Shown here: in pieces, positions 19,795 through 38,899 of the stretch | Position numbering within the stretch: the stretch's first letter is position 1 | Layout of the letters: the number at the start of each line of letters is the position of its first letter | NCBI GenBank assembly: GCA_964618145.1 | Contig: CAZTZR010000007.1 | Span: 2,010-66,009, forward strand | Length of the DNA: 64,000 bases | DNA from: an uncultured Kofleriaceae bacterium | GTDB taxonomy: Bacteria > Myxococcota_A > Polyangia > HGW-17 | Direction: 5' to 3' | Position numbers and translations under genes: made by a program | The notes under the pieces: model-generated | What the model was told of the DNA's origin: nothing | Seen by the model: only the letters and a program-made list of their open reading frames with translations | Databases searched by the model: none

Positions 19795-20298
19795 TTATTT
19801 TGTGGGATTGGAAAAATACTCGAATGCCTTGATCAGATCCGGAGAGGGGTCCACCAGATAGACCAACTGGGGGAAGGGTTCCCGGAAGTTGCGGATTTCA
19901 TCCACCAGGGCCCGGGCCAGTTCCCTGGGGTGGATGTGGGTGGCGCAGGGGCCGGGGCCCGGAATGGAGATGCTTTCGAACTCCCTCCGGGCTGCCGCGA
20001 TCAGTGCGGCCCGGACGGATTGGCGCACATGCTCGATGCGCGCAGGATCCGAATCCTCCCGGCGGTTGGGAACATGAATGACCCATGAGGCGATGTCACA
20101 GGTTCCGGCAGGGGTGATGCTGGCCGCGCCGATGGCAAATGGAGCCACTTTCAGGATTTCCTGTTCAACGGATTCGCCACAGGCCTCCCGTATGGCCAGC
20201 CCGGGTCCCTGGGACATCAGTCCGCGGGTGGAAGTGGGGGCAACGAGAGCCGTCACGGAAAAAGACAATACGGTGGCATTCTTGACAATCAGTTCCAT
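19795..20298 (-). CDS. Small protein with a possible macro-domain-like (ADP-ribose binding) fold. It is the last gene of the Tad-like/FHA operon.
   Basis: The motif ALVAPTSTRGLMSQGPGLAIREACGE loosely resembles the macro-domain core A-N-x-x-L-x-GGGV-x-GAI-x-x-AAG. This is weak, and otherwise the ORF has no other support. It lies 16 nt downstream of the 851-aa FHA gene. Confidence 0.35.
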   Translation of the reverse strand: MELIVKNATVLSFSVTALVAPTSTRGLMSQGPGLAIREACGESVEQEILKVAPFAIGAASITPAGTCDIASWVIHVPNRREDSDPARIEHVRQSVRAALIAAARREFESISIPGPGPCATHIHPRELARALVDEIRNFREPFPQLVYLVDPSPDLIKAFEYFSNPTK

Positions 20299-20314
20299 GG
20301 CTTCTCCTGCAGGA

Positions 20315-22870
20315 CTAGTCGTCGTCGTCGTCGTCGATGATGACCCGGCGCATGCCTGGTTTCATGACGGGAGGCGGATCCATGGGTGCCGGCATGGGGG
20401 CAACCATCTGAACCGGCATGGGTGCCGGCATGGGCGGATCCATGGGTGCCGGCATGGGTGTGGGTGCCGGCATGGGTGTGGGGGCCGGCATGGGTGTGGA
20501 CATGATGACGATTTCCGTATCCATGACAGGCATCGGACCGCCGGTGATACGGGCCTGGGCCTTCTTGTAGACTTCGGAACTTTCCGGCACGATGCGCAGG
20601 ACCTGGCGGTATTTGTCCCGGGCACCCGGGGCATCTCCCATGTTGTAGGCTTCCTCGTAAATCGCCTGGGCCCGGGTTTCCAGTTGCCTCAGGACGTTGG
20701 AAACATCCTCTCCCATGGCCACAGCCCGGGTATAGGCCTGATAGGCTCCTTCCAGGTTGCCCTGGGCCAGGCGGGCGGCCGCAAGAAGCCTGGCGTTCTT
20801 GCCCAGCCCCGGTCGGCACTCGCCGAGATAGGAACCGCCGAGGGATGCATCACTGGCGACACAGCGGTCATAAGCGGAAAACTGGGACTCGAAATTGGTC
20901 GAGGAGGGATCGATGGTCAGAAATGCGGCGGCCATGGCTTCCAGTGCCGTGGCCTGTGCATTGAGCCGATCCGCGCGTGCTCCGGATTCCTGTTTGGCCA
21001 GATTGCGGGCTTCCTGAGCGGCACCCACAAAATCCTTGGCGTCATATTTGGCCTTGACGGCGGCCGGAAGTCCGGAACCCGAACCGGAACTGCCGGGCCC
21101 GGTGGGAGTCGGGGTCGAGGGCAGGACCACACCAGCGGCCGCCACGAGAAGACCCGGTTCGGCCTTTTCATCGAATGTTGCCTTGTCTGCCACAATGTCG
21201 GCATCAGTGCGGCAGGAATCAATCAGACTGGGTGTGCCTTCAAACTCCTTCAAATGCCTGCGCAGGGCTGCTCCGGAATAGGTTTCCTGGACGATGGTAT
21301 TGCGCAGATCCAGCACTTTTTTGCAGCCAGGATACTCGGTCAGTATTTCATCCAACTTGGCAATGGCTCCCTGTCTTCCCCGGGCGGTCTGCTCACTGGC
21401 CAGACTGGTGGCTTCCGTGATTTTTGTCTGGATGGCAATGTTGTCCGCATTGCGTTTCTGGATGATGCCCTGGGCAACTTTCAGTTGACCGTCATAATAG
21501 GATTTTGCCTTTTCTGCAATCAGATCGGCGATTTCGGACAGATGGCCGGGTGCCTGATTGAGTTTTTCCTCACTTTCGGAAGTGGGGAATCCCGCCCGGT
21601 TCAGTCGCAATTGAACAAAATGGATGGCTTCATCCAGATTTTTTCCGGCGTCCACTTTTTTCCTGGCATTGGCGATGAGTTCACTTTCGGGAGCCAGTTC
21701 CGCGGCTTCCCTGATTTTTTCCAGGGCGGCTTCCCAGTTTACCCGACCGGTGGGAGAGAGTTTGTCTTCACTGATGTAATAGGCGCCTGCTTCCTGCAGG
21801 AGGGCTTCTATCTTCTGTTCCCTTTCCCTGCGGGCAACCACTTCCGGGTCTTCTTTGGGTGCCTCTTTTTTGTCGCCACTGAGTTTGAGTGCGAAAAGCA
21901 TTGCGAAGAGCACAAGGATGACCACCGAAACCACAGCGATCATTTTTTTGCCCCGGGTGTTGAGCAACCTTCCGAGCGCCGAACCGGTCTGCTGGTTCTG
22001 CATCTGGATGGCGGCCTGGGATGGATCGTACGGAAGCACGTTCACGTTGGCGGTGCGGTCATCGGGCATCCCGGGAAATCTTCCCGGCGGTCCCATGGGG
22101 GGCCTTGCGCCGGGTTGCATTCCAGGCGGCATTCCGGGTTGCATTCCGGGCGGCATTCCGGGTTGCATTCCGGGTTGCATTCCAGGCGGCATTCCGGGTT
22201 GCATTCCGGGTTGCATTCCAGGCGGCATTCCAGGCGGCATTCCAGGCGGCATACTCGGCATTCTTCCCGGCGGTCCCATGGGGGGCCTTGCGCCGGGTTG
22301 CATTCCAGGCGGCATTCCGGGTTGCATTCCGGGCGGCATTCCGGGTTGCATTCCGGGTTGCATTCCAGGCGGCATTCCGGGTTGCATTCCGGGTTGCATT
22401 CCGGGCGGCATTCCGGGCGGCATCCCCTGTCCTGGATGACCCCCGGGTCCTCCGGGGGGGCCGCCCGCTCCCCATGCCTGATACATGGTGGGCTTTCTCT
22501 GGGGGGCCGGCTTGGCACCCGACTGTACCGGGACGGATCCGGATACTCCCGCCTGCATCCGGGGATCCATGTATTTCATGCGTGTCTTTCCGGATACAAT
22601 TACATCGCCGTTGGTCAGAACGTGTTCCTTGACCTTGGTGCCGTTGACCTTGGTGCCATTTCCGGAGCCCAGGTCCCTGAGCATGTATCCATCCTTGGAT
22701 GGAATGATGTCGAAATGTTTTCTCGAAACGGAAAGGTCTGCCAGAATGAAAGTGCATTGGGCTCCGCGTCCCACCACCACCGGATTGGCACCTAGCGGAT
22801 ATTTCTTGCCCGTGTCATTTCCTTCGACAATTTCCAGATAAGGTCCGCTAGCAACAGCATTGGGGTCCAT
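20315..22870 (-). CDS. FHA-domain protein (851 aa). It has an N-terminal FHA domain, then a long Pro-Gly-Met low-complexity repeat. This is followed by a TM helix, a periplasmic alpha-helical/TPR-like domain, a PMPAPT repeat and a poly-Asp tail.
   Basis: FHA domain: [25 protein letters not shown]...[26 protein letters not shown] repeats span ~150 aa. TM helix: [22 protein letters not shown]-terminus: [17 protein letters not shown]...[11 protein letters not shown]. Confidence 0.8.
22083..22446. repeat. In-frame tandem duplication (2 x ~183 bp) inside the 851-aa FHA gene, itself built from CATTCC(R)GG(Y)(K)G short repeats.
   Basis: The block cccggcggtcccatggggggccttgcgccgggttgcattccaggcggcattccgggttgcattcc... 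starts at 22083 and again at 22266. It encodes the duplicated [11 protein letters not shown] stretches. Confidence 0.8.
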
Positions 22871-22883
22871 GGCTACCTCACAA

Positions 22884-24296
22884 CTATTCGGAAAGATCCC
22901 GAATGATGACTTCCAGTTTCTGCCTTCTCGGATCCTCTGGCGGGAAGTTTTCCAACTTCTCCTGCAGATCGAGTTGCGTTTTCTTCATCTCCCGGGTGTC
23001 CACCGTGCGCAGGATTTCCTGTGCCTTGCCCAGACTGATGTCAAATATGTGATCCAGTTCCCGGTTGAGAATGGCGATGGTGCGGACAGAGTCCTTGTAC
23101 ATCGCATTGAACTGGGCCATGTCCGGGGTCTCCAGATTCGCGAGTTCCAGCAGGTCGATGACCCTGTAGAATTTGATCAGGCTTTCCCGGTAATTGCTGG
23201 GGTGCTGCTCCCGACGATCAAACTGTTCCTTGGCAAGGGTATAGTCCTCGGACGCCCTTTCCAGATTCGGTTTGGGCAACTGGGTGGTTTTGATGCGCAC
23301 ATAAAAGACGACCCACTGTTCGTTGCCGGAACCCTGTATGGTTTCGGGGTGGTTGTACAGATTCCGGAATTCGAGGATGTTTTCCCCCACATGGAGTTTG
23401 ATTTCGGGGTTTTGTTTGGAGGCCCGATACAAATCCACATAATAGTTGTACTTTGGCTGGTTCGGGGGAGCCCATTCGGCATAGCGCACGCGTTGTCCGT
23501 TCAACAGGATTTCAACTTCCCTGTCTTTTTCGATCATCCCCGCTGCGTATGTCAGCACGACCCGGGTCTCGGGAGCCGCCACCTGGAAGGAGAGTTTGAG
23601 GCTGTGTTTGTGGGGGATGCAGCCATAACATTCCCCGAAATAATTTTCCAGGAAACTGGTCCAGGCATTTTCCCGGTACTCCACCACCACCTCACTTTGA
23701 TCAGGAATCTGCTGGACAACCTTTTCCTTGGGCTGAACCGCCATCAGGATCAGTTTCCCCAGTACCAGGGCCAGCATGACCGCAGTCAGGGTGATTCCCA
23801 GTCGGCCGGTGGGTTTGCTCCAGAGTTGATTGAACTTTTCGCCCATGGAAAGGCTGACCACTTCATGATCCAGTTTTTCCTTCTGTTTGTCGTTCAACTG
23901 GATGACAACCGTGGGTTCTCCTGCGGCTTCGGTGTCAATGTTGGTGAACATGATGTTCACGGTGCCCGCAGTGATGTAGTCACCGTCCTTGAGCACTTCG
24001 GGCTGAACCAGGATTTTTCCGTTGAGCCGGGTACCATTGGAGGAACCTGCATCCTCCACCATGAAAACACCGCGTTTTCCCCATACATGGGCATGGTTGC
24101 GGCTGATGCTGTCATCAATGAGTACAATGGTGTTTTCCTCGGTCCGCCCGATGGTGGCGTCACTTTCGAAATAGTATTCTTCCCCCCGTTGGCGCCCGTC
24201 CTGGATGGTCAGCATGAAACCGGTGGGGGACTCCTTGCGTCCCTTTCCACCGGCGGCTCCGCCGCGTCGATTGTGGTGTCGTCTCTGCTGGGCCAA
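22884..24296 (-). CDS. FHA-domain protein (470 aa) with one TM helix and a periplasmic domain.
   Basis: FHA domain: ATIGRTEENTIVLIDDSISRNHAHV...VEDAGSSNGTRLNG. TM helix: LGITLTAVMLALVLGKLILMAV. Its start abuts the tadC stop (24296/24297). Confidence 0.8.
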   Translation of the reverse strand: MAQQRRHHNRRGGAAGGKGRKESPTGFMLTIQDGRQRGEEYYFESDATIGRTEENTIVLIDDSISRNHAHVWGKRGVFMVEDAGSSNGTRLNGKILVQPEVLKDGDYITAGTVNIMFTNIDTEAAGEPTVVIQLNDKQKEKLDHEVVSLSMGEKFNQLWSKPTGRLGITLTAVMLALVLGKLILMAVQPKEKVVQQIPDQSEVVVEYRENAWTSFLENYFGECYGCIPHKHSLKLSFQVAAPETRVVLTYAAGMIEKDREVEILLNGQRVRYAEWAPPNQPKYNYYVDLYRASKQNPEIKLHVGENILEFRNLYNHPETIQGSGNEQWVVFYVRIKTTQLPKPNLERASEDYTLAKEQFDRREQHPSNYRESLIKFYRVIDLLELANLETPDMAQFNAMYKDSVRTIAILNRELDHIFDISLGKAQEILRTVDTREMKKTQLDLQEKLENFPPEDPRRQKLEVIIRDLSE

Positions 24297-25172
24297 CTAG
24301 ATTCCTCCTGCGCCACTCATGAACGCGTAGACGATGGGTGCGAACAGAACCAGAAAAACCGTGGGGAAGATGCAAATGACCAGGGGAAAAAGCATCTTGA
24401 CCGGGGCTTCATTGGCTTTCTTTTCAGCCAGTTGTGTGCGGTCAATCCGCATCTGGGTGGACTGGATGCGCAGGATTTTTCCGAGGCTTGTTCCCATGCG
24501 ATCCGCCTGGATGAGATTCGTTACGAAAGAGGAAATGGCCATGACCTGGATCCTCTTGGCCATGTTGCGCAGGGATTCTTCGCGGGTGCGACCCATGCGG
24601 ATTTCGGAGAGCATCAGGGAGAACTCGTCGGACAGGGGGCCTGCCTTGGCCTTTTCCACCACCGTTTGGATGGCGGCCTGGAAATCCAGTCCGGCCTCGA
24701 CTGACAGGGTGAGAAGATCCAGCGCATAGGGGAGTGCCCTTACAATCTTTTTCTGCCGGCGCTTGATCTGTTCCCTGAGCCACATGTATGGATACAAAAA
24801 GCCGAAAATGCCTCCGAAAGCCGCCCAGTACAGGGGTTTGTTCAGGGCATTGAGCAAGACCACCATGAACAGGGAGAAAAAGACGGTTCCGAGTTCCTGG
24901 TAAACGAGAAACTCCTCGGCGGTCAGTTCCGGCCTGCCCATGGCGATGAACTTCCATTTCATCTTTTCCCGGTAGGCATCGGAAATGAATTTTGACTGGG
25001 CACGGCCCATCTTGCGGAACAAAAGGGACCTGGCGGTCCTGGCTACGTTGCGCCCGCCACTTTCCTCGGCGGCTTCCGCCAGCAGTTGTGTCGGATACAA
25101 CCCCCAGAAAAGCAGAAAAACGGCCAGTCCCGTCAATCCGATTGCTACCATAAGCATCATGTTGCTATCCAT
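24297..25172 (-). CDS. tadC: TadC-like inner-membrane platform protein (T2SS-F/GspF domain).
   Basis: ~290 aa, polytopic. T2SSF-type helical cytoplasmic domain (LPYALDLLTLSVEAGLDFQAAIQ). Paired with an upstream TadB paralog. Confidence 0.75.
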   Translation of the reverse strand: MDSNMMLMVAIGLTGLAVFLLFWGLYPTQLLAEAAEESGGRNVARTARSLLFRKMGRAQSKFISDAYREKMKWKFIAMGRPELTAEEFLVYQELGTVFFSLFMVVLLNALNKPLYWAAFGGIFGFLYPYMWLREQIKRRQKKIVRALPYALDLLTLSVEAGLDFQAAIQTVVEKAKAGPLSDEFSLMLSEIRMGRTREESLRNMAKRIQVMAISSFVTNLIQADRMGTSLGKILRIQSTQMRIDRTQLAEKKANEAPVKMLFPLVICIFPTVFLVLFAPIVYAFMSGAGGI

Positions 25173-25174
25173 GG

Positions 25175-26017
25175 CTACACATCAATATCCACGATTTTGT
25201 AAATCATCCAGATCCCTGCGGCAATCATCACGATAATGACGGCAATGACCACCTTTCCAAAGGTTGATGCAAGAAAAGGCCCCATCAGGTCGGGCCTCAT
25301 GGCATTCATCACGATGCCCAGGAATATAGGCATGCAGCCGACCACCCACGCCTGCATCTTGCCCTGGGAGGTCAATGCCTTGATTTTGCCCTCCAGGCGG
25401 AAACGCTCCCGGATGGTGGCGGCGATGATTTCGTACATTTCTGCCATGTTGCCGCCGAGTTTGCGCGACACGTTGGTGGCGGTGACCACCAAATCCAGAT
25501 CTTCGGAGCCCACGCGCTTGTTCAGGTTTTCCAGGGCTTCTTCGGTGGGAAGTCCCAGTTTGAGTTCCTTGATGGTCAGGCTGAATTCCTGTCCCAGGGG
25601 CGCCGGGACTTCCCGGGAGATGCTTTCCATGGCCTGTTGCAGGGTGAGACCGGCCTTGAATGCCGCAGACATCTGGGAAAGGGCATCCACCAGTTGGACA
25701 TTGAACCGGGCGATCCGGCGCTTGCGGATCATCCGGATGCCCCACAAGGGCAGAATGAACCCGATGCCGAACAGGATGATGGCACCGAACCAGCCAAAGA
25801 TGACAAACCCGAGAAGGCTCATGATGAACGCGATGATGAGGGTGATGGTCATCAACTGGGCGGGAGAAATGAACATGAACATGTCCCCGAGGGTGGCAGT
25901 GCCCCGGGTGGCATATTTTTCCTCGTACAGTTCGAGGGCTTTCGTGACAATGCTGAATACGTACAGCGAAAGCACGAACGTTGAGACGAAGAAGAAAAGT
26001 ACCGCAAGACCGAGCAT
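25175..26017 (-). CDS. tadB: TadB-like inner-membrane platform protein (T2SS-F/GspF domain).
   Basis: ~280 aa, polytopic. T2SSF domain (QLVDALSQMSAAFKAGLTLQQAM). Only 2 nt gap to tadC. Confidence 0.75.
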   Translation of the reverse strand: MLGLAVLFFFVSTFVLSLYVFSIVTKALELYEEKYATRGTATLGDMFMFISPAQLMTITLIIAFIMSLLGFVIFGWFGAIILFGIGFILPLWGIRMIRKRRIARFNVQLVDALSQMSAAFKAGLTLQQAMESISREVPAPLGQEFSLTIKELKLGLPTEEALENLNKRVGSEDLDLVVTATNVSRKLGGNMAEMYEIIAATIRERFRLEGKIKALTSQGKMQAWVVGCMPIFLGIVMNAMRPDLMGPFLASTFGKVVIAVIIVMIAAGIWMIYKIVDIDV

Positions 26018-26034
26018 GGTATTTTGACTCCGGC

Positions 26035-26853
26035 TTATTGCGGGGGAACGGGGATGTCCTTGCCGATGCCACGGAGAATGCGGATGGTGTCGAGCGTCTG
26101 GATGCGCTGCATCCGGAGTTTCTTCGCCCGCTCGCGGGTCAGCAGGGTCTTGAGTGTGGTCCAGGCCCGTTCCTGCATGAGTCCGCGGTCATCGGGATTA
26201 CGCAGGGTCAGGGCGAGATCACCCACCTTCTGGGCAAGAACCAGCATTTCCGCCTCCTCGGGAAGCACGAGCAAGGTCACAGTGGCGAACGTGGCATCCA
26301 CGCTTTCGGGATTGTTCACGCCCTGGCCGCGTTCGCCCGTTTTCAGGACAACGATGTTTTCCAGGAGAGTGATAGCCACCATTTCGGATTGATCCCCGGC
26401 GGCGTTCTGGAAGGTGCCGAGGACATCGACATGATCGTTGGCCTGCAACCAGAAACCTACGGCAGAAGTGTTGTTCACCGAAATGGTAATGGCCCGGCCC
26501 CCCGGTCTCAGGCGCTGGCCGAGACTCTTGTCGGTTTCCTGTCCTTCCAGATTGTGGAAGTAGATGGGTTGCCCTTTTTCAATGCGATGGATCAGCAGTC
26601 GTCTTCGGTTGAGTTCCAGATCACCAGGCGTGAGCATGGAATCCGTATAAAACTGCTCGGGAATCTCCCCTTCTTCCACGATGTCCACGGTCAGGGGGGT
26701 TCGGGGTTTGATGGGACTGGCTGCCACAAGGATTTTCACCGTGCGCCAACGGGAGCGGATTTTGGTCTGCTCCCGCTTAATCATCGTCTGGACGATGAGG
26801 GCTGCCACGATTGCCAGGGCGATAGCTATGATAATTGGCGCTTTGCCTTTCAT
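26035..26853 (-). CDS. cpaB: CpaB/RcpC-like Flp-pilus assembly protein (SAF domain).
   Basis: N-terminal TM anchor (APIIIAIALAIVAALIV). SAF-like beta domain followed by the RcpC-type C-terminal domain. Typical length. Confidence 0.75.
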   Translation of the reverse strand: MKGKAPIIIAIALAIVAALIVQTMIKREQTKIRSRWRTVKILVAASPIKPRTPLTVDIVEEGEIPEQFYTDSMLTPGDLELNRRRLLIHRIEKGQPIYFHNLEGQETDKSLGQRLRPGGRAITISVNNTSAVGFWLQANDHVDVLGTFQNAAGDQSEMVAITLLENIVVLKTGERGQGVNNPESVDATFATVTLLVLPEEAEMLVLAQKVGDLALTLRNPDDRGLMQERAWTTLKTLLTRERAKKLRMQRIQTLDTIRILRGIGKDIPVPPQ

Positions 26854-26981
26854 CGGGCGTCAACTCCTTTGTGCGTCGAGTGCAAAAAGACCGATATTCG
26901 ATCGAACACACCAGATCCGCGTTATCATATAGATTGGAACGTCTGGCGTCAAGGGATACTGACAGGAACAACGGTCCTTCG

Positions 26982-28835
26982 TTACGGATTCTCGGGGGTG
27001 ATCAGCGGATTCATGTCCACCCGGACAAGCCTGCCCGCCAGAAGCGAGATCGTCTTTTCCCGGTGTGGGATTCCCTTTCCGGCCGATTCGACACGGGCCT
27101 TGATGCTGGAACTGTCCCAGATATCCGGGAAGGGGATTTCCAGCATGGTTCCGGGCAGGCCCGGAAGGGTACGCATTTCCCCTTCGAGAATATGCACTGC
27201 GATGGCACTGCCGGAGGGGGCGTTGACAATCAGGCGGGCAGGCCTCCAGTTGAGCCGGACGTGGATGCGGTTGGACTGCATGGAGGCGGGGATGGTGATG
27301 GAACGGGAATAACAGAGCGGATGGGTGAAGGTCAGGGTATGGGTGCCCGGGCCGACACGGATGCGGGATATGGCGGGAGGCTGTGGTCCCCATTGGCCCA
27401 GTTCCCGCTCGTTGAGGAACACTTTCACGTTTCCCTGGGGGAAGGGAATCAAATCGAATGTGCGCAATGCATCCATGGAGGTTTCCACAGGCATCGGCAA
27501 CACGGGAAGGATAGGCCGCAGGTTCTTCACGGTCGGAATGCCCATGGTCAGGGGGGGGGGCATGACAGGTTGCTCCACCATGGGAACCGGCACATCCAGG
27601 GTGATCGGGTCTTCGGTAGTGGGATACTCCGGATCCGCGGGTGTCATGGCGGTGATGGTTTCAGGCGTGAGGGAAACACCGGAGAACGGAAGGTATTCGA
27701 GGGATGGGCCCAGTTTGTGCCAGGCCAGAATGGAAAGAACCAGAAGTGTGAGCAACACCGCCAGGGATGGAAGGATCCATTTCCGGAAATTCTTTCCGGT
27801 CCGGTGCAACTCCAGCCAGATGGACTGGACCCGGTTATCGGCGGGGGCCAGATGCAGCAGGCGTGCAATGATCTGGTGCGCTAAGGGCTTTCCCGGATTC
27901 ATCTGGACGCCATCGAGGAGACTTTCGATGATTGCCGGTGTGCGGTTCTCCTCGAAGGATTCCGGATCCATGAGCAGGTTTTTGCATTCCCCGGGAATGT
28001 TGGCAGCCTGAATTCCGGACAAACCGAGAATCTCTTCGGTCATTTCAAGAAGTTCTTCCGTGGATTCCGGCCGGTCTTCCGGGAATTTTTCCAGGCAGCG
28101 GCGAATGATGCGTGCCACGGGGGTGCCAATGTCCGGCTTTCGCACCTCCGGATCCGGGTAGTCGGTTTCGGCAATCCTGACCAGGACTGCATGGGGGTTG
28201 TTGCCCGAGAAGGGCAACTCACCCACCGTGAGTTGGTACAACAGGATCCCCAGGGCGAAGATGTCGGCGGGTTTTCCGGCTTCTTCTCCCCGCACGATCT
28301 CCGGAGCCATGAAGGCCGGGGAGCCGAGGATCTGGCCGGTGGAGGTCATCTTCGGATTTTCCACGATCCGGGCAATCCCGAAATCCATCAACTTCAGTTC
28401 CCCGCCCGGAGTGATCATGATGTTTTCGGGTTTCAGATCCCGGTGGATGATGCCGGCGGAGTGGGCGTGCCCCAGTGCAACCAGAAGACGGTGGAAAACC
28501 AGCAGGCCCGATTCACTGAGTGTGAAGGTGTGTTCCCGGCAGAAACGTGCCAGGGTGACCCCGGGAATGAACTCCGTAACAATGTAGGTGTGCTCCGAGT
28601 CCGGTCCGGAATAGTCATAGACTTCCGGAATCAACGGGTGTTGGAGCCGGGCCACTGCCCGGGCCTCCGCAGCGATGCGTTCTTTTGCCTGCAATTCCTC
28701 GGAGAGATGCGGGTGAAGCAGTTTGAGGGCCACTGTCCTCCCGAGCATCGTATCGTGGGCCTTGAACACAACGGCCATGCCGCCGCGTCCGACCTCTTCG
28801 ATGATCCGGTATTTGCCGATCTGAGTCAGTGCCAT
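26982..28835 (-). CDS. Eukaryotic-like Ser/Thr protein kinase with a TM helix and a C-terminal periplasmic domain.
   Basis: VAVKLL (VALKLL here), HRDLKPENI, DFG and APE motifs. TM helix: WILPSLAVLLTLLVLSILAW. Start taken at MALTQIGKYRI (28835). An alternative start at 28886 would overlap obg. Confidence 0.85.
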   Translation of the reverse strand: MALTQIGKYRIIEEVGRGGMAVVFKAHDTMLGRTVALKLLHPHLSEELQAKERIAAEARAVARLQHPLIPEVYDYSGPDSEHTYIVTEFIPGVTLARFCREHTFTLSESGLLVFHRLLVALGHAHSAGIIHRDLKPENIMITPGGELKLMDFGIARIVENPKMTSTGQILGSPAFMAPEIVRGEEAGKPADIFALGILLYQLTVGELPFSGNNPHAVLVRIAETDYPDPEVRKPDIGTPVARIIRRCLEKFPEDRPESTEELLEMTEEILGLSGIQAANIPGECKNLLMDPESFEENRTPAIIESLLDGVQMNPGKPLAHQIIARLLHLAPADNRVQSIWLELHRTGKNFRKWILPSLAVLLTLLVLSILAWHKLGPSLEYLPFSGVSLTPETITAMTPADPEYPTTEDPITLDVPVPMVEQPVMPPPLTMGIPTVKNLRPILPVLPMPVETSMDALRTFDLIPFPQGNVKVFLNERELGQWGPQPPAISRIRVGPGTHTLTFTHPLCYSRSITIPASMQSNRIHVRLNWRPARLIVNAPSGSAIAVHILEGEMRTLPGLPGTMLEIPFPDIWDSSSIKARVESAGKGIPHREKTISLLAGRLVRVDMNPLITPENP

Positions 28836-30666: not shown

Positions 30667-33600
30667 CTATCTGCGGGGAGGGGGCGGAATTTTTCGTTCG
30701 GTAAATCGCGGTTCCGGGATATCCCCTTTTCCGGGCACATGGATGTACTGGTAAAAACCGGGACGGTTGGTGATCTCCATGGTATGGATGGTCATGGTTT
30801 CCTTCCAGAGATCCCGGACAATGATCAACTGATACCGGGCCGGAGGTAAAAACCGGGTGCCGCCGGAGGGACTCTGGAAAAAGCGCAGGAGTTGATCCCG
30901 GCCTTCCGGGTGGTGCGCCAGGGTGATGCCCAGAACCCGGTTGAAGGTGCCGACCGCTCCATAGTCCTCTTCGTCCTTGTCCGGATTTTGCGGGAAACCG
31001 CCTTCCCGTCCCAGAAGCTGGGCCTGCCCTTCGAGATTCCGCACGAACACCAGCATGGAACCCGTGTCGTCCAGAAGTCCGTTCCGCCGTACGCGGGTTC
31101 GCCAGCCATCTGCAGGGATTTCCGGATGACCGGCGAGTTGTGCCAGCCGGATGGCGAACAGATGGCGCGTCGGTGCGAAGGAATGCCGGTGGAGAAGGTG
31201 TTCATAGCCCTGCAGTCCCAGTTCCCAGTTGCCCCGTGCCAGAAGGGTTTCGGCGATCAGGACACGGGGTTCCGGTGCCTGGGGCAGAAGCCAGGAAAGG
31301 AATTCGTATTCGGCCAGGGCATCGGTCAGAAGGCCATGGCGCCGGTAGAAGTCGCCAAGACGTTTGCGGGTCCATGGATCGTGGGGAGCCAGTTCCACGG
31401 AGGTGGAGATCGCCAACTGCGCCAGTATGGGGTTTTCCAGTTTCATGTAGAGTTCAGCCAGTTCTTCCCGCTGTCCCGCAGTGAGATCGTTCCGGTGCAG
31501 CAACTCTTGCCCGCGGACCAGCGCCACATCGGTCTGTTTGACCGGGATTGCGGATCGCATGACAAACAAAGAAAGCGCTGCGTTCTCCGGATCGAGTTTC
31601 TGCCACTTCCGGGCAAATTCATAGATGGCCCTTTCTTGCGCTTCCTGAGTCAGTTTTTTGCCATCCTTTTCATGCCAGCGATCCAGTTCGGCCAGGAATG
31701 ATCCGTAAAGGTTTCCGCCGTGCAGGGACAGTGTCTGGACCACCCAGCGTGCTTCTTCGGTAGTTTTCACGGTCCGCAGGATCTGTTCGCGCAAAAAGCC
31801 GGATACAGCGGAACCTTCGGGGGAAAGGAGCGGTACCAGTGCAAGTTTCTGGCGGATGTCCTGCATGCGCTGGAGTATCACTTCCAGGATGGCCCGCCGG
31901 TCAATCCAGGATTCCAGTTCGCAGGCGGACTGGGCTGCACGGTATAATTGTTCGGCTTGCCAGGCGTTTCCGTTGTAAGGCATTTTCTGACGCCAGGCCC
32001 GTCGCCTTTCCTCCACGGTGGCCCGGGAGAGCCGGGAGCACTCCTGCGGCAGCACCTGGCCGGTGGAGACGAAGGAATAGGTATGTCCGATGGTAACCGG
32101 CTGTCCCGAGGGGGGGGGCGGCAAAGGTGGGGACAGGTTCAGGGCACGGATGATGCACGGCGGAATCGTTGCATCCGTAAGGGTGCTGTTTTTCAGTTCG
32201 ATTTTCTGGAAACGGCCATCGTTTCCAACCACCAGTTCCAGCAACACGGTGCCGCCGGTCATGGGGGCGAATACCGCCTTGCGCTGATAGCACTGGTTTA
32301 CTGCCTCCATGCGATCCCGGCTGTTCAGCAATGACCGGTAATACATTTCCAGCGAGAAACCATGCACCGGAGGTTCCAGGTCCGGCAGGGACAGGCCCGA
32401 GATGGATGACGGCGGCATGTTGCGCAATCCCACGTGCTGGTATTCGGGAAGACGGGGCAGTTCCTGGAAGATGTTTTCCGGGATCTGGCAAAACTCCGGG
32501 GAACTGCCGGAAAAGAAGAAGGAATATCCGGTGTAGGGGGTCACCATCCGGTACTCGGTGGCCAACTGGGCGATGGCCTCGAATCCGGCACCCCGGGCGA
32601 TGAGGTCCTCCAGTCGGGAGGCGGCCCACAATTTGCGCAGAACCTCCGTGTCCGTGGTCACCACGGGGGAAAGGGGCAGGACCACGGAGAAGGATCGGGA
32701 GCCAAAAAATCCTGAGACAATTGCCTTTTCGGGAAGTTTTTCGGCAAATCCCTTGATGAAAAGCGTCGAATTGATCTCGGCGGAGGGGGTGTGAACCGGT
32801 GTGGTGCGACTGACCGAAGGACCCAGGTCTACCCGGATGTCCTTGAATGCCGCAGCTTCCAGTTCCTGCAGGAGTAGTCCCGCCCGGGCGCTGAGATCCC
32901 CCACCTCTTCCACATGAAATGTGCGCCCCAGGGAGGACAGGATGTTGGTTCCGTCCGGTTTTCCCAGGAGGATGCTGGCAAACAGGGGGCTTGGGGAACT
33001 CATGGAAAGCCGGGATGCCAGACGGGATGCAATCATGGGACCCCGGGTGGGTTTTCCGTCACCGACATAAACAATGAGACCCTCTCCGTTGGGAATCAGG
33101 ACGGTGGCCCGTTCGATGGCCAGTCCGAGATCCGTGGCTCCGGCAGGATTCAGCCGGGAGATCTGTTCCAGGAACCGTTCCCGGCGTGCAGAGTTCAGGG
33201 GGGCGAGTCCCTGGTCATCCAGTGCGGTCACGTCTCCCCGCAGGACGAACACGGCCACCCGGGTTTTCTCGTTCATTTTCTCGAAAAGGGATGCAAAGGC
33301 CGTTTTCAGGACCTGGATGCGGGAGGAATCCATGGATGCGGACATGTCCAGCAGGAACACCACTGCCGGTTCCGGAATCCGGGTAGTTGAAGGAAGCATT
33401 TTCGAGATTTTTTCCAGGGGAATGGACAAAAGGAAGGATGCACGTTCACCGGGATCCTTCTCCACCTCGAACAGGGGTTCGTTGGCGGACCGGGGGAACA
33501 CCTCGGCCACAAAGTCCGAAAGCGGCAAAAAGTCGCTGCGCCGAACCATGAACTGCTGGTTTTCCCAGGCGCCTTCCCACCCTGAACGAAGACGGGCGTC

Positions 33601-34686
33601 GGATTCCAGAACGCGAAGGCCGAGTTCAAACTCGGCTGCCCTGGCACCACCGCTCATGGGGTACCGGTACAGGCGACGTCCTCCCACGTCCGAGAGGGTC
33701 TGGACATAGGTCAGCCGGATGCCCACCTCCTCGGCGGGAGGGAGATCCGTCATCAAGGCGCCGAACTCGGCTTCTCCGGTTTGAAAGAAAATGCCGTCAG
33801 TGGATACTTCGGAAAACGCGCCCACAGGAAGGGTGGAGGGGGAGATCCAGACCCCGGACTTCCGGGAGATCGATGCGTCCATGATGACGGAACCCGCAGG
33901 TATGCGCACGCGGTAGTCGGCATCCCTGGATACACTCGATGGATTGAAGAAAACCTGCTCGACTTCCGTAATGGCGGTTCTGCGGCGGATGCGCACGTTT
34001 ACCTTCTGCCGGCGCAGGATCAGTGGTGTTCCCCCCTGTCCCAGTCCTTCCGGACCCCGGGGACGTCCTGTAAGCACTCCATAACCGCTGTCCGACCTTC
34101 CGGCGCGGAACAGGCCACCGGTCCAGTCGGTCCACAACTCGGTGGGCCGGGCCCGGGGGCCTTCGGCACCCAGAAGGAAGGTGCCCCCCCGGAGCCGTTC
34201 CGGTTTCGGGCCGTAATGGACATTCAGTTCCCCCTCCAGATGATGCAGGAGCACACCATCAGGGGATATCGTGATGTTGAATGCAGCCTCGCGACAGGAC
34301 AGCCTGCCCCCGGGAAGGGTCAGATCCCAGTCCTTTTCAGTACGTGCCCGGACCCAGGCCCGGCCGGACAGCAGTTCGGTGCGGGTTGCCGTCACCAGCA
34401 TTTCGGTGCCGGTATCCAGAAGCAGGCTCACCCCGTTGTCCAGGTGAACCGCGGCATGCTGCACGGTCCGGATTTTCCTTCCCGGCAGGAGCCGGAACGG
34501 GGAGGTGCCATTGGAACCTTCCGCGGTGACAGGATGACCCATGGGGTCAACGGTGGCTACGGTTTCCTCGAAACGGACCGAAGGGGCACCATCGGTTTCC
34601 GTGGCGGGAGCGGTTTCCGCGGGAGGTTTGCTGCAATGCAATGCGGGGAGCAGCAACCATACAAGAAGAATGGAGATGTTTCTCAT
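30667..34686 (-). CDS. Giant exported lipoprotein (~1340 aa) built from a FecR-like domain, a VIT domain, a VWA domain and a C-terminal TPR/alpha-helical region.
   Basis: Start MRNISILLVWLLLPALHCS (lipobox). VIT-like: RLYRYPMSGGARAAEFELGLRV. VWA MIDAS-type: VVFLLDMSASMDSSR...GATDLGLAIERA. C-terminal ~450 aa of TPR-like helices. It is a paralog of the upstream gene. Confidence 0.75.
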   Translation of the reverse strand: MRNISILLVWLLLPALHCSKPPAETAPATETDGAPSVRFEETVATVDPMGHPVTAEGSNGTSPFRLLPGRKIRTVQHAAVHLDNGVSLLLDTGTEMLVTATRTELLSGRAWVRARTEKDWDLTLPGGRLSCREAAFNITISPDGVLLHHLEGELNVHYGPKPERLRGGTFLLGAEGPRARPTELWTDWTGGLFRAGRSDSGYGVLTGRPRGPEGLGQGGTPLILRRQKVNVRIRRRTAITEVEQVFFNPSSVSRDADYRVRIPAGSVIMDASISRKSGVWISPSTLPVGAFSEVSTDGIFFQTGEAEFGALMTDLPPAEEVGIRLTYVQTLSDVGGRRLYRYPMSGGARAAEFELGLRVLESDARLRSGWEGAWENQQFMVRRSDFLPLSDFVAEVFPRSANEPLFEVEKDPGERASFLLSIPLEKISKMLPSTTRIPEPAVVFLLDMSASMDSSRIQVLKTAFASLFEKMNEKTRVAVFVLRGDVTALDDQGLAPLNSARRERFLEQISRLNPAGATDLGLAIERATVLIPNGEGLIVYVGDGKPTRGPMIASRLASRLSMSSPSPLFASILLGKPDGTNILSSLGRTFHVEEVGDLSARAGLLLQELEAAAFKDIRVDLGPSVSRTTPVHTPSAEINSTLFIKGFAEKLPEKAIVSGFFGSRSFSVVLPLSPVVTTDTEVLRKLWAASRLEDLIARGAGFEAIAQLATEYRMVTPYTGYSFFFSGSSPEFCQIPENIFQELPRLPEYQHVGLRNMPPSSISGLSLPDLEPPVHGFSLEMYYRSLLNSRDRMEAVNQCYQRKAVFAPMTGGTVLLELVVGNDGRFQKIELKNSTLTDATIPPCIIRALNLSPPLPPPPSGQPVTIGHTYSFVSTGQVLPQECSRLSRATVEERRRAWRQKMPYNGNAWQAEQLYRAAQSACELESWIDRRAILEVILQRMQDIRQKLALVPLLSPEGSAVSGFLREQILRTVKTTEEARWVVQTLSLHGGNLYGSFLAELDRWHEKDGKKLTQEAQERAIYEFARKWQKLDPENAALSLFVMRSAIPVKQTDVALVRGQELLHRNDLTAGQREELAELYMKLENPILAQLAISTSVELAPHDPWTRKRLGDFYRRHGLLTDALAEYEFLSWLLPQAPEPRVLIAETLLARGNWELGLQGYEHLLHRHSFAPTRHLFAIRLAQLAGHPEIPADGWRTRVRRNGLLDDTGSMLVFVRNLEGQAQLLGREGGFPQNPDKDEEDYGAVGTFNRVLGITLAHHPEGRDQLLRFFQSPSGGTRFLPPARYQLIIVRDLWKETMTIHTMEITNRPGFYQYIHVPGKGDIPEPRFTERKIPPPPRR

Positions 34687-34696
34687 GGTGTTACCT

Positions 34697-37600
34697 CTAT
34701 TTCTCCGAAACCACGGTGATCTGGTTTCCCGCAATCTGCAGGGTGATCTGTTTTTTGCCCTTTTCAAATGTCACGGCCTTTTTGAACAGGGTTTCCCCAT
34801 CGGTGCCTTCCTGCAGGATGATCAGGATCTCGGCTTCCAGGGGACGCAAACTGTCGGCATCGGCCCTTTCGACCCTGAGAAACACGGAAGAGGGAAGTTT
34901 GGCCATGACCGCCGCCTGCAGGCCGAAAGCGGGCCTGACAAAGGGAACCCGGCCAAGGTCTTCCAGAGAAGGTCCCCAAAGGAACTCCAGATCGGCCTTG
35001 GGATGTTTGTGGGTGAGCAGGATCTTCACCGCCTCGTCATCCCGGAACAGGGCCATCATGCGGCCGCGGTTCAGGATGGTCTGGCGGATGGCGGTGGCGG
35101 CATCCATCCGCATGCGTGCCAGGAACAGGCAGCCGAAAAACCGGGCCAGTTTCACCGGGTCGCTTCCCGGATCTCCGGATGTCAGGATTTCCTCCACCAG
35201 ACCGAGGGACTTTTCGAACTCCCCGGTATCCTCATAGGCATCGGCCAGGTACAACCGGGCTTCGATACTGTTCTGCACCAGCGCGGAGTAGGAAAGGAAC
35301 TCCCGCACGGCAAGTTCCTTCCAGCCGAAGGCACGGTACAACTGTCCCAGCATGCGACGTCGTCCCGGGTTGCTGGGGGCGAATTCGACGATTTCCGACA
35401 GAAGGCGCCTGGCCCGTACGTTGTCATCACGGCGCAGGGCATATTCCACGGCTTCCAGTCGCAATTCGTCGTCCAGAAGCGGGTTTCCGAACAACCTCTG
35501 CACCAGTTCGTCCGCACGGGTGAACATGGATTCGGTTTCGAAAATCCGCAGCAATCGCATGGTGAGCCACGGGTCTTCGGGACTCGCCAGCCGCAGTTTC
35601 TGCAGGATGGCCATGCGCTCGGATGCATTGGTCGCCTTTTCCAGCATTTCCTCGATCTTGACGCGTTCCAGCGTGGTTCCCAGTCCCAGGTGGCGACGCA
35701 CATACAGGATGTCCTCCACCTTGGTGATCCGGGCCAGTATGGCGGTGCGCAGCAGGTCGGAAAAACCGTGCTCCGGCACAAAGAGTTTGTAGAATTCCAC
35801 CATCACCTGGATGGTGGGCATGACGGAAACCGCACTTCGCAGGAACAGCATCCGGGCATGGGCGGTGGGTGCCTCGCATTGCCGGATGGCATCCTGGAAC
35901 AATTCCATGACCCGCCAGGGATTGGCGCCGGCCAGGCGTTCACGCCAGCCACCCACACGCTGCCACAGGGGCAGTTTCGAGAGGGCCGAACAGGGGCTGG
36001 GCTGCCGGGAGATGGAACAGTCATGGCAGATGATGAGGGTATTTTCCGCCAGTTTTGTCAACTCGGAGGCATTGGACTGGAACAACGACAGTCCACTGAT
36101 GTCGGAATCCGGGGCAGAGCGATAACCATCCAGACCCCTTTGGGCCGGGGTTTGCCGGCCCCCTTCCTTTTCACGGGCCCCACGGGGGTCTTCCCTCCGC
36201 TGGCGGCCAGACGTCCGGTCACTGCCCTCGATGCCTGTTCCACCGGCGAACGGCCGGGCTTCACCAGTGACAACCGGTTGGTCCCGGGATTTTTCCGGGG
36301 TTATGGCCCTTGGACGTCCGGGTCTGGCAGGTCGTGGAGGGGGAACTGGAGCAGGGGCGGAACCGGGGGCCTGGGGCACACTGGTGGTTGGCATGGGTTC
36401 CGGGGCCGGGGCACTGAAGGAAGGTGCGGAATCCGCGGATAACTGCATTGCCCCGAATGTTTTCAGGGTTCTGGTGTCACGGGGTCCCCTTTCTGCTGGT
36501 GCTTCGGCGACTTCCTCCCTTTTCAGCCTGTCACCCTTTGCCTCTTCCATCTCCGCGGCGTCTTCCTGATCCTGCAGTTTCTCGTCATCCAGGGCGGCTT
36601 CGGCAGCGGTGGGAACATACAGCGAGGTGAACGGTGTCACCAGTTCATACCGGAGCCCCAGATCCAGCAGTTCCTCGGGGGATGCGTTGTCCTGGATATA
36701 CTGGAGAAGCCGGTGATAGGCCCAGCGGCGTGGCAGTTCCTTTCCCTGGGTGAAGCGACCCCAACTCACGGGAAAGGAGCGTTCCCAGGGCTGTCCGTCC
36801 AGTTGGCCCCGCAATACGATCCTGGAGGGAAGTTGCGTGGTGGAGGCGTGGCCGACCACCACGAGGTCCTCCCCGGGTTGTACGGTAAACCGTCCGCGGG
36901 GGTATGGTTGCAACAAGGCTGCCCGGTCGAAGTCAACCTCGGCATTCCGCAGTTGCGGTCGTCTCAACTGGTTCATCCAGGGGGAAAGCAGCCGCAGGTC
37001 TCCGGGTTCGGTGACCTTCAGGGGGGGGACGTCCCCGGCCAGACGGGTCAGGATGTCCAGTCCCGGACCATCGGCAATGGCCACGGCGCGAAAGGCCACA
37101 AATACGGGAAGTTCCGCCCAGGTGCGGGCGATGAGATCCGCATCCAGTATCCCGACGGTGGGCACTCCATTGCCAACATACAAGAGCACCGGCGAGGTTC
37201 CCGGAATGAATTCGGAGAAGACGCCCGCGGCTTCCTCCAGCAGACCGGAGAGATCGGTGGCGCCTCCTTTCTTCTGGCTGGACAGGTGTTCCAGAAGGGG
37301 GACGGGGTCCTCCTGTCCGATGGTGACAAAGGCATTGGCCTTGCGCAGGGAGGTGTCCCCTGAAACAATGGTCACCTTGTCCCCCGGTTGCAGGGAGGCC
37401 ATGAGATTTTCCACCAGGGATCTGGACATCTGGAACTGGGCAGGCGTGGTGTCGGCGCTGACATCCACCAGGATGGCCAGATGCAGTTTCCTGGACAGTT
37501 CCTCCGCGGTTGTGAAGGGACGCAGACGGATCATGGCGTGATCTCCCCGCTGGACAGAGGGCCTGTCACGGCCGGCCGGCCGGTCGTACCAGCCCAGGGC

Positions 37601-38899
37601 CTGTTGCGGATTCAATCCGTCATCCAGGAGTTCCACATGCAGATCCGAAGTGGTCTGGAAATCCGAGGCGCTCTTGCGAAGACGTTCGCCTTCCACGAAA
37701 AGGCCGAGGTTGGCCCTGAAAGTTCTGGCGCCTGCATCCTTGAGTTGCACGGTTAGCGAAAATTCACCGATTTCGGGGGACAGCCCATCGGCTCCCAGCA
37801 TGGGAAGCGAATACATGCGGCGGTCGCGGCCTTCCCCCATGCGGGACAGCCATGTGGTGTAGCGGATGAAGACCTTGCGCCGGGAACCTCCGGGGATCGG
37901 GTAGATCGAAGCGCGGTAGCGGCCTTCCTCCTCCCATTCCAGAAGCGCGGGGTCTTCACGGGATCCTGCATAGACATGGCTTTCGTACTGGGTTCTGGCC
38001 ATTTCCTTGCCCTTGATCTTGCCGAAAACCATGCGTCCGTCCCGGTCCACAGCGAAGCCGGTGACCAGGGCGTGTTCCGGGGCGCCGAAGCGGTAGATGC
38101 CTTCCAGGGTGTTGCGGGTGGGGTTCAGGAACTCCTGGGTCACCTCCGTGACGGCGAGATCCCCCAGAATGCGTACATTCACATCCATTGAAGTGATGAC
38201 AAGCGGGATGTGAGCCTTGCCCAGATCGCCGGGGTTGCGGGCTCCCAGAACCCCTTGTCCGGGGACCAGATCCATGCCGGGTTCGGGTTTGAATTCCAGT
38301 CCGCCGGCAGTGCTCTGCCACCAGCGCAAAGGCTGGATGCGCTGAACCGCATCCTGTCCGGTTGCCTGGGCGTCATTGCCAGAATGGCCGTGACCCAGCC
38401 GCAACAGGTGACCGGCCTTGACGAGATGGCGGCTGCCGTCCAGGACGGCCAGGATTTCGCCGGAGATCACCCGGAGAACGGGTTCCTGATCATCGGCGAT
38501 TTCCACAATGGCATCCTGCCCGCGGATACTCCATTCCTTCCAGGAGAAATCTGCCGCGATTCCTGCGGGAAATTCCACCCATACGCTTCCGTCGGATACC
38601 GCCGGATGGCGTTCCTGCACGAGGCTGGCGTTGGGCAGAAGGTGAATGCGGACTCCATTTTCGTGGGTGACCAGGGCGAATCCCTCTCCGGTGGAAAGTT
38701 TGTCACCGGGGGAGAGCAATGTCCTTCCGGAAAGGGGTCTGGAGTTCGTCAGGCACTGGCCACGAATGCACTCAGCATGGGCCACGGAGGGGACGTAATC
38801 CTCCGTCCGATCCTTTTCGGGAGGACTTTTATCACAATGTATCAACAGAAAAATGCCGGTAAACAGAAGGACAAAATGGAATGGCCGGAATGGATGCAT
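34697..38899 (-). CDS. Giant exported lipoprotein (~1400 aa). It has the FecR-like, VIT and VWA domains, then a Pro-rich linker and a C-terminal TPR region. It is a paralog of 30667..34686.
   Basis: Start MHPFRPFHFVLLFTGIFLLIHCD (lipobox). VIT-like: FGKIKGKEMARTQYES. VWA: LAILVDVSADTTPAQF...GGATDLSGLLEEAA. Pro-rich linker: PAPEPMPTTSVPQAPGSAPAPVPPPRPARPGRP. 10-nt gap to the downstream paralog. Confidence 0.75.
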   Translation of the reverse strand: MHPFRPFHFVLLFTGIFLLIHCDKSPPEKDRTEDYVPSVAHAECIRGQCLTNSRPLSGRTLLSPGDKLSTGEGFALVTHENGVRIHLLPNASLVQERHPAVSDGSVWVEFPAGIAADFSWKEWSIRGQDAIVEIADDQEPVLRVISGEILAVLDGSRHLVKAGHLLRLGHGHSGNDAQATGQDAVQRIQPLRWWQSTAGGLEFKPEPGMDLVPGQGVLGARNPGDLGKAHIPLVITSMDVNVRILGDLAVTEVTQEFLNPTRNTLEGIYRFGAPEHALVTGFAVDRDGRMVFGKIKGKEMARTQYESHVYAGSREDPALLEWEEEGRYRASIYPIPGGSRRKVFIRYTTWLSRMGEGRDRRMYSLPMLGADGLSPEIGEFSLTVQLKDAGARTFRANLGLFVEGERLRKSASDFQTTSDLHVELLDDGLNPQQALGWYDRPAGRDRPSVQRGDHAMIRLRPFTTAEELSRKLHLAILVDVSADTTPAQFQMSRSLVENLMASLQPGDKVTIVSGDTSLRKANAFVTIGQEDPVPLLEHLSSQKKGGATDLSGLLEEAAGVFSEFIPGTSPVLLYVGNGVPTVGILDADLIARTWAELPVFVAFRAVAIADGPGLDILTRLAGDVPPLKVTEPGDLRLLSPWMNQLRRPQLRNAEVDFDRAALLQPYPRGRFTVQPGEDLVVVGHASTTQLPSRIVLRGQLDGQPWERSFPVSWGRFTQGKELPRRWAYHRLLQYIQDNASPEELLDLGLRYELVTPFTSLYVPTAAEAALDDEKLQDQEDAAEMEEAKGDRLKREEVAEAPAERGPRDTRTLKTFGAMQLSADSAPSFSAPAPEPMPTTSVPQAPGSAPAPVPPPRPARPGRPRAITPEKSRDQPVVTGEARPFAGGTGIEGSDRTSGRQRREDPRGAREKEGGRQTPAQRGLDGYRSAPDSDISGLSLFQSNASELTKLAENTLIICHDCSISRQPSPCSALSKLPLWQRVGGWRERLAGANPWRVMELFQDAIRQCEAPTAHARMLFLRSAVSVMPTIQVMVEFYKLFVPEHGFSDLLRTAILARITKVEDILYVRRHLGLGTTLERVKIEEMLEKATNASERMAILQKLRLASPEDPWLTMRLLRIFETESMFTRADELVQRLFGNPLLDDELRLEAVEYALRRDDNVRARRLLSEIVEFAPSNPGRRRMLGQLYRAFGWKELAVREFLSYSALVQNSIEARLYLADAYEDTGEFEKSLGLVEEILTSGDPGSDPVKLARFFGCLFLARMRMDAATAIRQTILNRGRMMALFRDDEAVKILLTHKHPKADLEFLWGPSLEDLGRVPFVRPAFGLQAAVMAKLPSSVFLRVERADADSLRPLEAEILIILQEGTDGETLFKKAVTFEKGKKQITLQIAGNQITVVSEK

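Follow-up and report, generated by a model that had tools for sequence, protein, structure and literature searches.

A membrane platform module of an uncultured Myxococcota bacterium as a very probable orthologue of the Kil cluster 2 core of Myxococcus xanthus

Contact-dependent prey lysis by Myxococcus xanthus is abolished by deletion of kilB, kilG or kilH, whose products belong to the Kil apparatus (PMC8460266). These genes map to Kil cluster 2, which comprises MXAN_4652 (KilB, SAF/RcpC family), MXAN_4651 and MXAN_4650 (KilG and KilH, both GspF), MXAN_4649 (an FHA protein, PrgH-like by HHpred) and MXAN_4648 (FHA and TPR), together with the pilin-like genes MXAN_4655-4660; cluster 1, found elsewhere in the genome, encodes the peptidase KilA, the secretin KilC, the FHA-fused ATPase KilF and KilD, and both the enrichment in FHA domains and the split-locus layout are published hallmarks of Kil (PMC8460266). 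At the contact site, polymerisation of the Kil pilus, which consists of KilP and carries minor-pilin tips that can be interchanged, depends on KilF, and Kil assembly then recruits a needleless type III secretion system (T3SS*); kilP and the other pilin clusters are themselves unlinked in M. xanthus (PMC12075869). Here we examine a stretch of 64,000 nucleotides (hereafter, the window) from contig CAZTZR010000007.1 of an uncultured Kofleriaceae bacterium, in which the genes at 20315-26853 (minus strand) are, as judged by sequence comparison, very probably the orthologue of the Kil cluster 2 core in an uncultured member of the Myxococcota.

Kil-like loci related to predation, with homologous CpaB, KilG and KilH families, also exist in Bradymonas sediminis and Bdellovibrio bacteriovorus; unlike in the window, the consecutive Bradymonas genes DN745_00680-00700 group CpaB, secretin, ATPase, KilG and KilH together, and the table of that work does not list homologues of MXAN_4648 and MXAN_4649 for these bacteria (PMC8460266). 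The canonical Tad/Flp systems, such as Cpa of Caulobacter and Tad of Aggregatibacter, share with our locus a CpaB/RcpC protein and two T2SSF proteins (TadB and TadC), and presumably the same mode of pilin polymerisation. Their loci are contiguous, with flp, cpaA/tadV, cpaC/rcpA, cpaE/tadZ and cpaF/tadA and, to our knowledge, carry no genes for FHA/transmembrane (TM) proteins.

The window contains the same five genes as the core of M. xanthus Kil cluster 2, neither their order nor their orientation being changed, and the two FHA/TM proteins share the FHA-TM-periplasmic architecture of their counterparts; here too the ATPase, secretin and peptidase genes are not alongside. They belong to a row of seven open reading frames (ORFs) placed back to back on the minus strand at 19795-28835, which had been described in an initial annotation of this sequence; the coordinates of the seven genes and every family proposed for them, including those of the TadB, TadC and CpaB proteins, hold in Pfam and NCBIfam searches. 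From upstream to downstream, the features of the locus are as follows:

26982-28835, minus strand: Hanks-type membrane Ser/Thr kinase whose extracytoplasmic C-terminal domain is rare, an upstream neighbour (Pfam Pkinase, E 3e-50)
26924..26952, minus strand: promoter-like element TTGACG-17-TATGAT upstream of kilB (consensus scan and conservation)
26035-26853, minus strand: probable kilB orthologue, CpaB/RcpC family, with an N-terminal TM anchor (Pfam RcpC, E 1.7e-24)
25175-26017, minus strand: probable kilG orthologue, T2SSF/TadB-type polytopic inner-membrane platform protein, 280 aa (Pfam T2SSF, E 4.1e-20)
24297-25172, minus strand: probable kilH orthologue, T2SSF/TadC-type platform protein, 291 aa (Pfam T2SSF, E 6.8e-18)
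22884-24296, minus strand: probable MXAN_4649 orthologue, FHA/single-TM/periplasmic-domain protein, 470 aa (Pfam FHA, E 2.7e-15)
20315-22870, minus strand: probable MXAN_4648 orthologue, FHA/Pro-Gly-Met repeat linker/single-TM/TPR-like protein, 851 aa (Pfam FHA, E 1.5e-16)
19795-20298, minus strand: macro-domain gene, of ADP-ribose-binding type (Pfam Macro, E 1e-11)

The CpaB protein also scored 153.6 bits with the NCBIfam model TIGR03177 (cut-off, 71), and the macro protein matched an NCBIfam family of ADP-ribose-binding proteins with an E value of 1.5e-24, under the cut-off of that family. A simple hydropathy scan found a single TM segment in the kinase, in CpaB (residues 7-25) and in each of the two FHA proteins; the T2SSF proteins have three strongly hydrophobic segments apiece.

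The homologue alignment of the 280-aa T2SSF protein was scanned against one genome per species and retrieved 80 loci. Almost all of these belong to Myxococcota, with two records labelled otherwise, as Comamonas sp. and Pseudomonadota. This protein had 3721 homologues, most of the top 120 being exactly 280 aa long, and the nearest relatives are metagenome-assembled genomes labelled Haliangium, Kofleriaceae or Polyangia; the window comes, unlike the M. xanthus cluster, from an uncultured Polyangia/Haliangium-like lineage. Among the scan loci was that of M. xanthus AM003 (L055; loci are designated by L and a number), which we identify as Kil cluster 2 because its T2SSF proteins, of 296 and 281 aa, are letter-identical to the KilH and KilG rows labelled 'Mxanthus' in the published supermatrix, and because it is flanked by TadE/TadG-like minor pilins upstream and xseA downstream, as expected for MXAN_4648-4661. 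In BLASTP comparisons with this locus, the CpaB protein of the window showed 35% identity, over its full length, to the 271-aa protein preceding KilG, the 280-aa T2SSF protein 51% identity to KilG over residues 3-280, and the 291-aa T2SSF protein 52% identity to KilH; the hits for the FHA proteins were collinear. The five core genes of the window are collinear orthologues, gene for gene, of MXAN_4652-4648.

Correspondence of the two FHA/TM proteins was evaluated by hhalign with family profiles built from the genes at the two FHA positions in Polyangia-type and in Myxococcaceae-type loci. The family of the 470-aa protein aligned over its full length with that of MXAN_4649 (probability 100%, E 1.1e-70), as did the family of the 851-aa protein with that of MXAN_4648 (probability 100%, E 1.4e-67 over 523 columns), and the crosswise comparisons (470-aa/4648 and 851-aa/4649) aligned the FHA domain only. 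In the 470-aa protein the FHA domain is followed by a TM segment at residues 168-186 and, in an AlphaFold2 (AF2) model, by a beta-sandwich (204-339) and a helical bundle (345-469). The 851-aa protein has its FHA domain at residues 31-92, a TM segment at 310-328 and a sub-threshold match to Pfam TPR_2. Both FHA domains retain the GR...SxxH...NG signature for phosphothreonine binding. The MXAN_4648 counterpart in M. xanthus has 582 aa and the length among relatives varies from 555 to about 900 aa; the window version differs from that of M. xanthus by a linker of PGM tetrapeptide repeats between FHA and TM, encoded by a 12-nt tandem repeat of about 25 copies at 22117-22423 (PGMQ/PGMP). A separate set of 18/36-nt repeats, at 20381-20499, encodes PMPAPT near the C-terminus of the same protein, which ends in DDDDDD.

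The likeness of the predicted KilG to published systems was measured by sequence identity in a single block (116 residues) of the published supermatrix, and not by a full phylogeny. In this block, it is 65-66% identical to Myxococcales Kil sequences and at most 47% to every other taxon; the values are 40-43% for Bradymonadales, 36-45% for Bdellovibrionales and 26-29% for the Tad of alpha-proteobacteria. By this measure the predicted KilG groups with Myxococcales Kil and apart from other Tad-like and Tad systems, and the separation is large. These values also bear on the alternative that the locus is an ordinary adhesive Tad/Flp platform for surface attachment, its remaining genes lying elsewhere and with no part in prey killing. 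The CpaB and T2SSF families are indeed generic to Tad, yet identity in the KilG block is 65% to Kil versus 26-29% to canonical Tad, and the FHA/TM genes, always attached in the loci compared, are absent from the reference Tad loci of the Caulobacter homologue table (PMC8460266). Besides, flp, cpaA, cpaC, cpaE and cpaF are all missing from the window, and so we regard an adhesive platform as very unlikely.

Several analyses dealt with the rest of the apparatus. Pfam scans of the large ORFs of the window revealed no CpaF-type ATPase, secretin or prepilin peptidase, and a regex scan of its ORFs of at least 35 aa found no N-termini of Flp (G-x4-EY plus a hydrophobic stretch) or TadE type, although very divergent pilins could escape it. 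Likewise, tblastn with the M. xanthus cluster 2 proteins, including KilM4, KilN4 and KilL4, detected no pilins in the window. Upstream of kilB we sought TadE, TadG and Flp-like genes and found no minor-pilin (Tip) genes comparable to MXAN_4653-4661 in the window. Where M. xanthus cluster 2 has its upstream minor pilins (Tip4: KilL/M/N, KilK), the window has instead the kinase gene and rplU-rpmA-obg; pilin genes are also lacking beside the module in the non-Myxococcaceae relatives examined. The initial annotation was therefore right that CpaF, secretin and Flp pilin are missing from this locus, and the contiguous flp, peptidase, secretin, CpaE/TadZ and CpaF/TadA genes of a canonical Tad/Flp locus were found in the window neither by Pfam nor by the motif scan. 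In M. xanthus, too, the genes for ATPase, secretin, peptidase and major pilin lie elsewhere, so that a locus lacking them conforms to the layout known for Kil. The predicted proteins of the window display the features of the Kil cluster 2 core that we looked for, with the exception of attached minor-pilin genes.

Three points weigh against reading the locus as part of a Kil killing apparatus: ATPase, secretin, peptidase and pilin were not found within the window, so that a complete machine is assumed from Myxococcus; predation by this uncultured lineage is presumed from M. xanthus, a point that also counts for the adhesive alternative; and MXAN_4648 and MXAN_4649 are listed as of 'unknown function' in M. 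xanthus (PMC10433427), our literature search having found no functional study of either gene. The proposal that this is a Kil-like system, namely the platform half of Kil, is nevertheless borne out by the collinear orthology to MXAN_4652-4648 and by identity in the KilG block. It had also been suggested that the arrangement was unusual and could represent a new variant, which we abandon, given that FHA enrichment and a split layout had already been published for Kil (PMC8460266). The locus is a real and well-conserved module, the expected orthologue of an already described system, found in the phylum that served to define Kil.

Conservation of the module was assessed in six metagenomic contexts plus the 80 genome loci, 86 in all, a total in which certain contigs are counted more than once. 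The order CpaB-T2SSF-T2SSF is kept in 83 of 84 loci; all 80 loci whose sequence is long enough have an FHA gene next, and 49/53 have another one within 7 kb. With such figures, the gene arrangement is far beyond chance, and the invariant unit across Myxococcota is KilB-KilG-KilH plus the two FHA/TM proteins. From this invariance, over more than 80 loci, we argue that MXAN_4649 and MXAN_4648 are integral to the platform; the always-attached pair nominates both as core components and as obvious targets for deletion.

What surrounds the module is far more variable. Only the closest clade (L007, L009, L010, L011 and L012, with KilG identity of at least 87%) has rplU-rpmA-obg-kinase upstream and the macro gene downstream, and it also shares a VWA gene further upstream. 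Within it, the kinase gene adjoins the module only in L007, L009, L010 and L012, and the macro gene follows it only in L007, L011 and L012. Relatives at 79-83% KilG identity carry priA or other genes upstream, more distant Polyangia-type loci carry divergent TIG-domain genes, and Myxococcaceae loci have a pilin cluster upstream of the module. Downstream, the macro gene of the window is replaced in M. xanthus by xseA. Kinase and macro genes are thus probably lineage-specific neighbours of the module, and the macro gene in particular a clade-specific tail gene whose membership in the module is doubtful. In Polyangia/Haliangium-like lineages the module, with no pilins attached, is more dispersed than in Myxococcus.

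Comparison with the close relative L012 gave dN/dS values of 0.05-0.21 for all genes, which are rough because dS is near saturation, and every gene of the module is under purifying selection. We considered and ruled out that the locus is a degenerate remnant, on account of these ratios, the intact ORFs and the wide conservation of the module.

Genetic work in M. xanthus and what is known of Tad systems suggest a mechanism for the predicted apparatus. KilG and KilH would form a polytopic inner-membrane platform, through which the FHA-fused CpaF-type ATPase KilF, encoded elsewhere, would drive polymerisation of a Flp-type pilus, and KilB (CpaB/RcpC) would span the periplasm toward the secretin KilC. 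Each bitopic FHA protein would expose a canonical phosphothreonine-binding FHA domain to the cytoplasm and, on the periplasmic side, a beta-sandwich/helical or TPR-like domain, and the two would most likely act as scaffold or regulatory subunits gating platform assembly upon Ser/Thr phosphorylation, for example after prey contact. ATPase, secretin, prepilin peptidase and pilins would be expected at other loci, as in Myxococcus.

The initial annotation had included the kinase gene in the operon. Its product has intact VALK, HRDLKPEN, DFG and APE motifs, a TM segment at residues 353-371 and a C-terminal region of ca. 245 aa; the ATG start at 28835 agrees with the N-termini of the homologues in L009 and L012. 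Directly upstream of it lie obg, rpmA and rplU (Pfam). As calculated from the coordinates, 41 nt separate obg from the kinase gene and 128 nt the latter from the CpaB gene, and the following junctions measure 17 (CpaB to TadB), 2, 0, 13 and 16 nt. The gaps of 0-16 nt originally reported for the whole row are thus essentially correct from CpaB onward, where the maximum is 17 nt, and do not apply to the kinase-CpaB junction.

This 128-nt gap contains a promoter-like element. About 100 nt before the kilB ATG are conserved in six close relatives, sequences farther upstream being unalignable, and the conserved block reads CCTTGAC-N17-TATATGmT...GGTGTGT...AAGGAGT (ribosome-binding site)-ATG. A consensus scan independently flagged TTGACG-17-TATGAT at 26952..26924, within the gap; since promoter-like matches over the whole region are no more numerous than expected by chance, the weight of this element comes from its conservation. 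In two relatives, L009 and L012, different genes sit upstream of the conserved block. These two loci contain extra CpaB-like paralogues between the kinase gene and kilB (7307-8125 and 8025-9011 in L012; 8160-9005 in L009), of which there are none in the window, with lipoprotein-type signal peptides (e.g. LLLAMLAATSLSHC) and Pro-rich tails.

The C-terminal sensor region of the kinase is rare: an exhaustive HMMER search retrieved 46 cluster representatives only among 1.84 billion proteins, and a word-indexed search with the same domain yielded a single fragment. Assemblies JAHJLU01 and JALWFW01, the sources of Kil-module loci L014 and L018, also provide the two full-length homologues that match best. 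Neither of these kinase genes shares a contig with the Kil module, and their neighbours are unrelated, namely recG with a histidine kinase and aconitase in one case and PQQ-repeat, pdxJ and glmM-like genes in the other. In a sister genome (L089), a gene for a 202-aa stand-alone FHA protein (4947-5555, plus strand) is found with the closest kinase homologue two genes downstream and recG between them.

Because adjacency of the kinase gene is limited to one clade, its homologues are unlinked, and a conserved promoter-like element precedes kilB, the five-gene module is best read as a predicted transcription unit of its own, to which the macro gene may add a clade-specific tail. The kinase gene is more likely co-transcribed with obg, or transcribed alone, and is probably a neighbour of the module rather than a part of it. 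The inclusion of the kinase in the operon is accordingly not sustained, with adjacency restricted to the closest clade, homologues unlinked in two sister assemblies and the promoter-like element in between; as to the read-through from rplU-rpmA-obg that had been thought meaningful, it is possible for the kinase gene, but the module has its own upstream element.

There is a known precedent for a membrane Ser/Thr kinase encoded beside FHA proteins of an envelope machine, in the control of the type VI secretion system (T6SS) of Pseudomonas aeruginosa by the kinase PpkA, Fha1 and the phosphatase PppA. Threonine phosphorylation in T6SS is a plausible working analogy for contact-triggered assembly, although in the window the machine is different, there is no PP2C phosphatase nearby, adjacency of the kinase is not conserved and the FHA proteins are bitopic. 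On the model of such systems, and as the initial annotation supposed, the locus could be a dedicated phospho-relay operon. The C-terminal domain of the kinase would sense a signal from the envelope or from prey, the enzyme would phosphorylate targets read by the FHA pair, and all of this would form one unit co-transcribed with the platform. The gene directly upstream on the same strand does encode a kinase that looks active and has both a TM segment and an extracytoplasmic domain, the phosphothreonine-binding residues are intact in both FHA domains, and adjacency is kept in four close relatives, even with CpaB paralogues inserted. Also, a phosphorylation cascade was postulated for Kil by the authors working with M. 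xanthus (PMC8460266). However, the clade that keeps this adjacency also keeps rplU-rpmA-obg and the VWA gene, and so it may reflect mere local synteny; at 79-83% KilG identity the kinase gene already gives way to priA or other genes. The location of the closest kinase homologues, in JAHJLU01 and JALWFW01, on contigs other than that of the Kil module, and the 128-nt gap with its conserved element, also speak against such an operon. No PP2C phosphatase was found by Pfam scans among the large ORFs of the window and linkage to the kinase is lost outside the closest clade, which is not what a module of the PpkA-Fha1-PppA type would present. We thus consider a dedicated phospho-relay operon unlikely.

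In this lineage, a membrane Ser/Thr kinase of a rare type might have been recruited beside the Kil platform and could write the phosphothreonine marks that are read by the Kil FHA domains, an idea to which we give only a slim chance; a regulatory link between kinase and FHA proteins is possible, adjacency in one clade being the single argument for it. If it were true, this clade would offer genomics a first way into the question of how Kil assembly is set off by contact with prey.

A second group of neighbours, of T3SS type, lies past the other end of the row. A FliH/SctL-like ORF (a weak match; 16203-16922, plus strand) overlaps the start of an ORF for a FliI/YscN-family ATPase (16711-18216, plus strand; TIGR01026, 483 bits against a cut-off of 380), whose true start is probably near 16920. 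Next comes a 449-aa ORF with no family match (18387-19736, plus strand), which ends 58 nt from the macro gene, the trio being convergent with the Kil-like operon. We saw no other T3SS genes in the window. PDB sequence searches with the 449-aa ORF and with KilG gave nothing significant, and a WWE-like similarity of the former to RNF146 (E 0.08-0.19) was rejected as chance; the WWE domain of RNF146 binds iso-ADP-ribose and the 449-aa ORF abuts a macro (ADP-ribose-binding) gene, which is probably also fortuitous. The T3SS-type ATPase was discarded as the 'missing' ATPase of the platform, as it belongs to the F1/FliI family and not to CpaF/T2SSE, as in Tad, and is unlinked in L007 and L012, the two close relatives with contigs long enough downstream to show it.

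In M. xanthus, SctL and SctN are encoded inside the T3SS* cluster that Kil recruits. It could then be envisaged that the FHA/TM proteins are adaptors similar to SctD (YscD/PrgH), coupling the platform to a type III ATPase complex through the adjacent SctL/SctN-like genes. With SctD they share a cytoplasmic FHA fold, a single TM segment and a periplasmic domain, and both match Pfam Yop-YscD_cpl; the FliH/SctL-like ORF and the ATPase are about 1.6 kb past the end of the operon, with one 449-aa ORF in between and in convergent orientation, and in M. xanthus Kil recruits the needleless T3SS* and SctN colocalises with KilD (PMC12075869). Nevertheless, the Yop-YscD_cpl match spans the FHA fold only, the model of the periplasmic part has a beta-sandwich and a helical bundle instead of ring-building motifs, and the phosphothreonine-binding residues are kept. 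Moreover, the T3SS* of M. xanthus possesses its own SctD (PMC10433427), and in L007 and L012, the two close relatives with contigs reaching that far beyond the macro gene, the 4.5 kb downstream of the module contain no such ATPase genes. An SctD-like adaptor role is, consequently, very improbable. The sensor Ser/Thr kinase and the SctL/SctN-like pair are candidate leads for Kil signalling and for T3SS* coupling, respectively, and at present we treat both as coincidental.

The remaining large ORFs of the window correspond, by Pfam, to housekeeping genes (recA, nadA, a pyrB-pyrI fusion, ruvB, ruvC, yebC, lspA, mreBCD, PBP2 and rodA) and to typical myxobacterial genes, including VIT/VWA giants, TPR proteins, a second kinase and an FHA-GAF sigma-54 activator; an Rfam scan of the window found tRNA-Gly only. 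The activator (1511-3304, plus strand) is an enhancer-binding protein of NtrC type and, as such, another FHA-bearing regulator in the window. Directly upstream of rplU there are two giant ORFs, of 1366 and 1400 aa (30667-38899, minus strand), with VIT and VWA domains and FecR-like and TPR matches; the 1366-aa gene adjoins rplU and has a counterpart at that position in the close clade. The apparent pyrB-pyrI fusion is a 504-aa ORF (10344-11858, plus strand) in which the catalytic domains of aspartate carbamoyltransferase (OTCace_N and OTCace) are joined to those of its regulatory chain (PyrI and PyrI_C). Lastly, a 171-aa ORF (44042-44557, minus strand) matches the Pfam LIM zinc-finger with 25.7 bits against a gathering score of 22.9, which is unusual in a bacterial protein.

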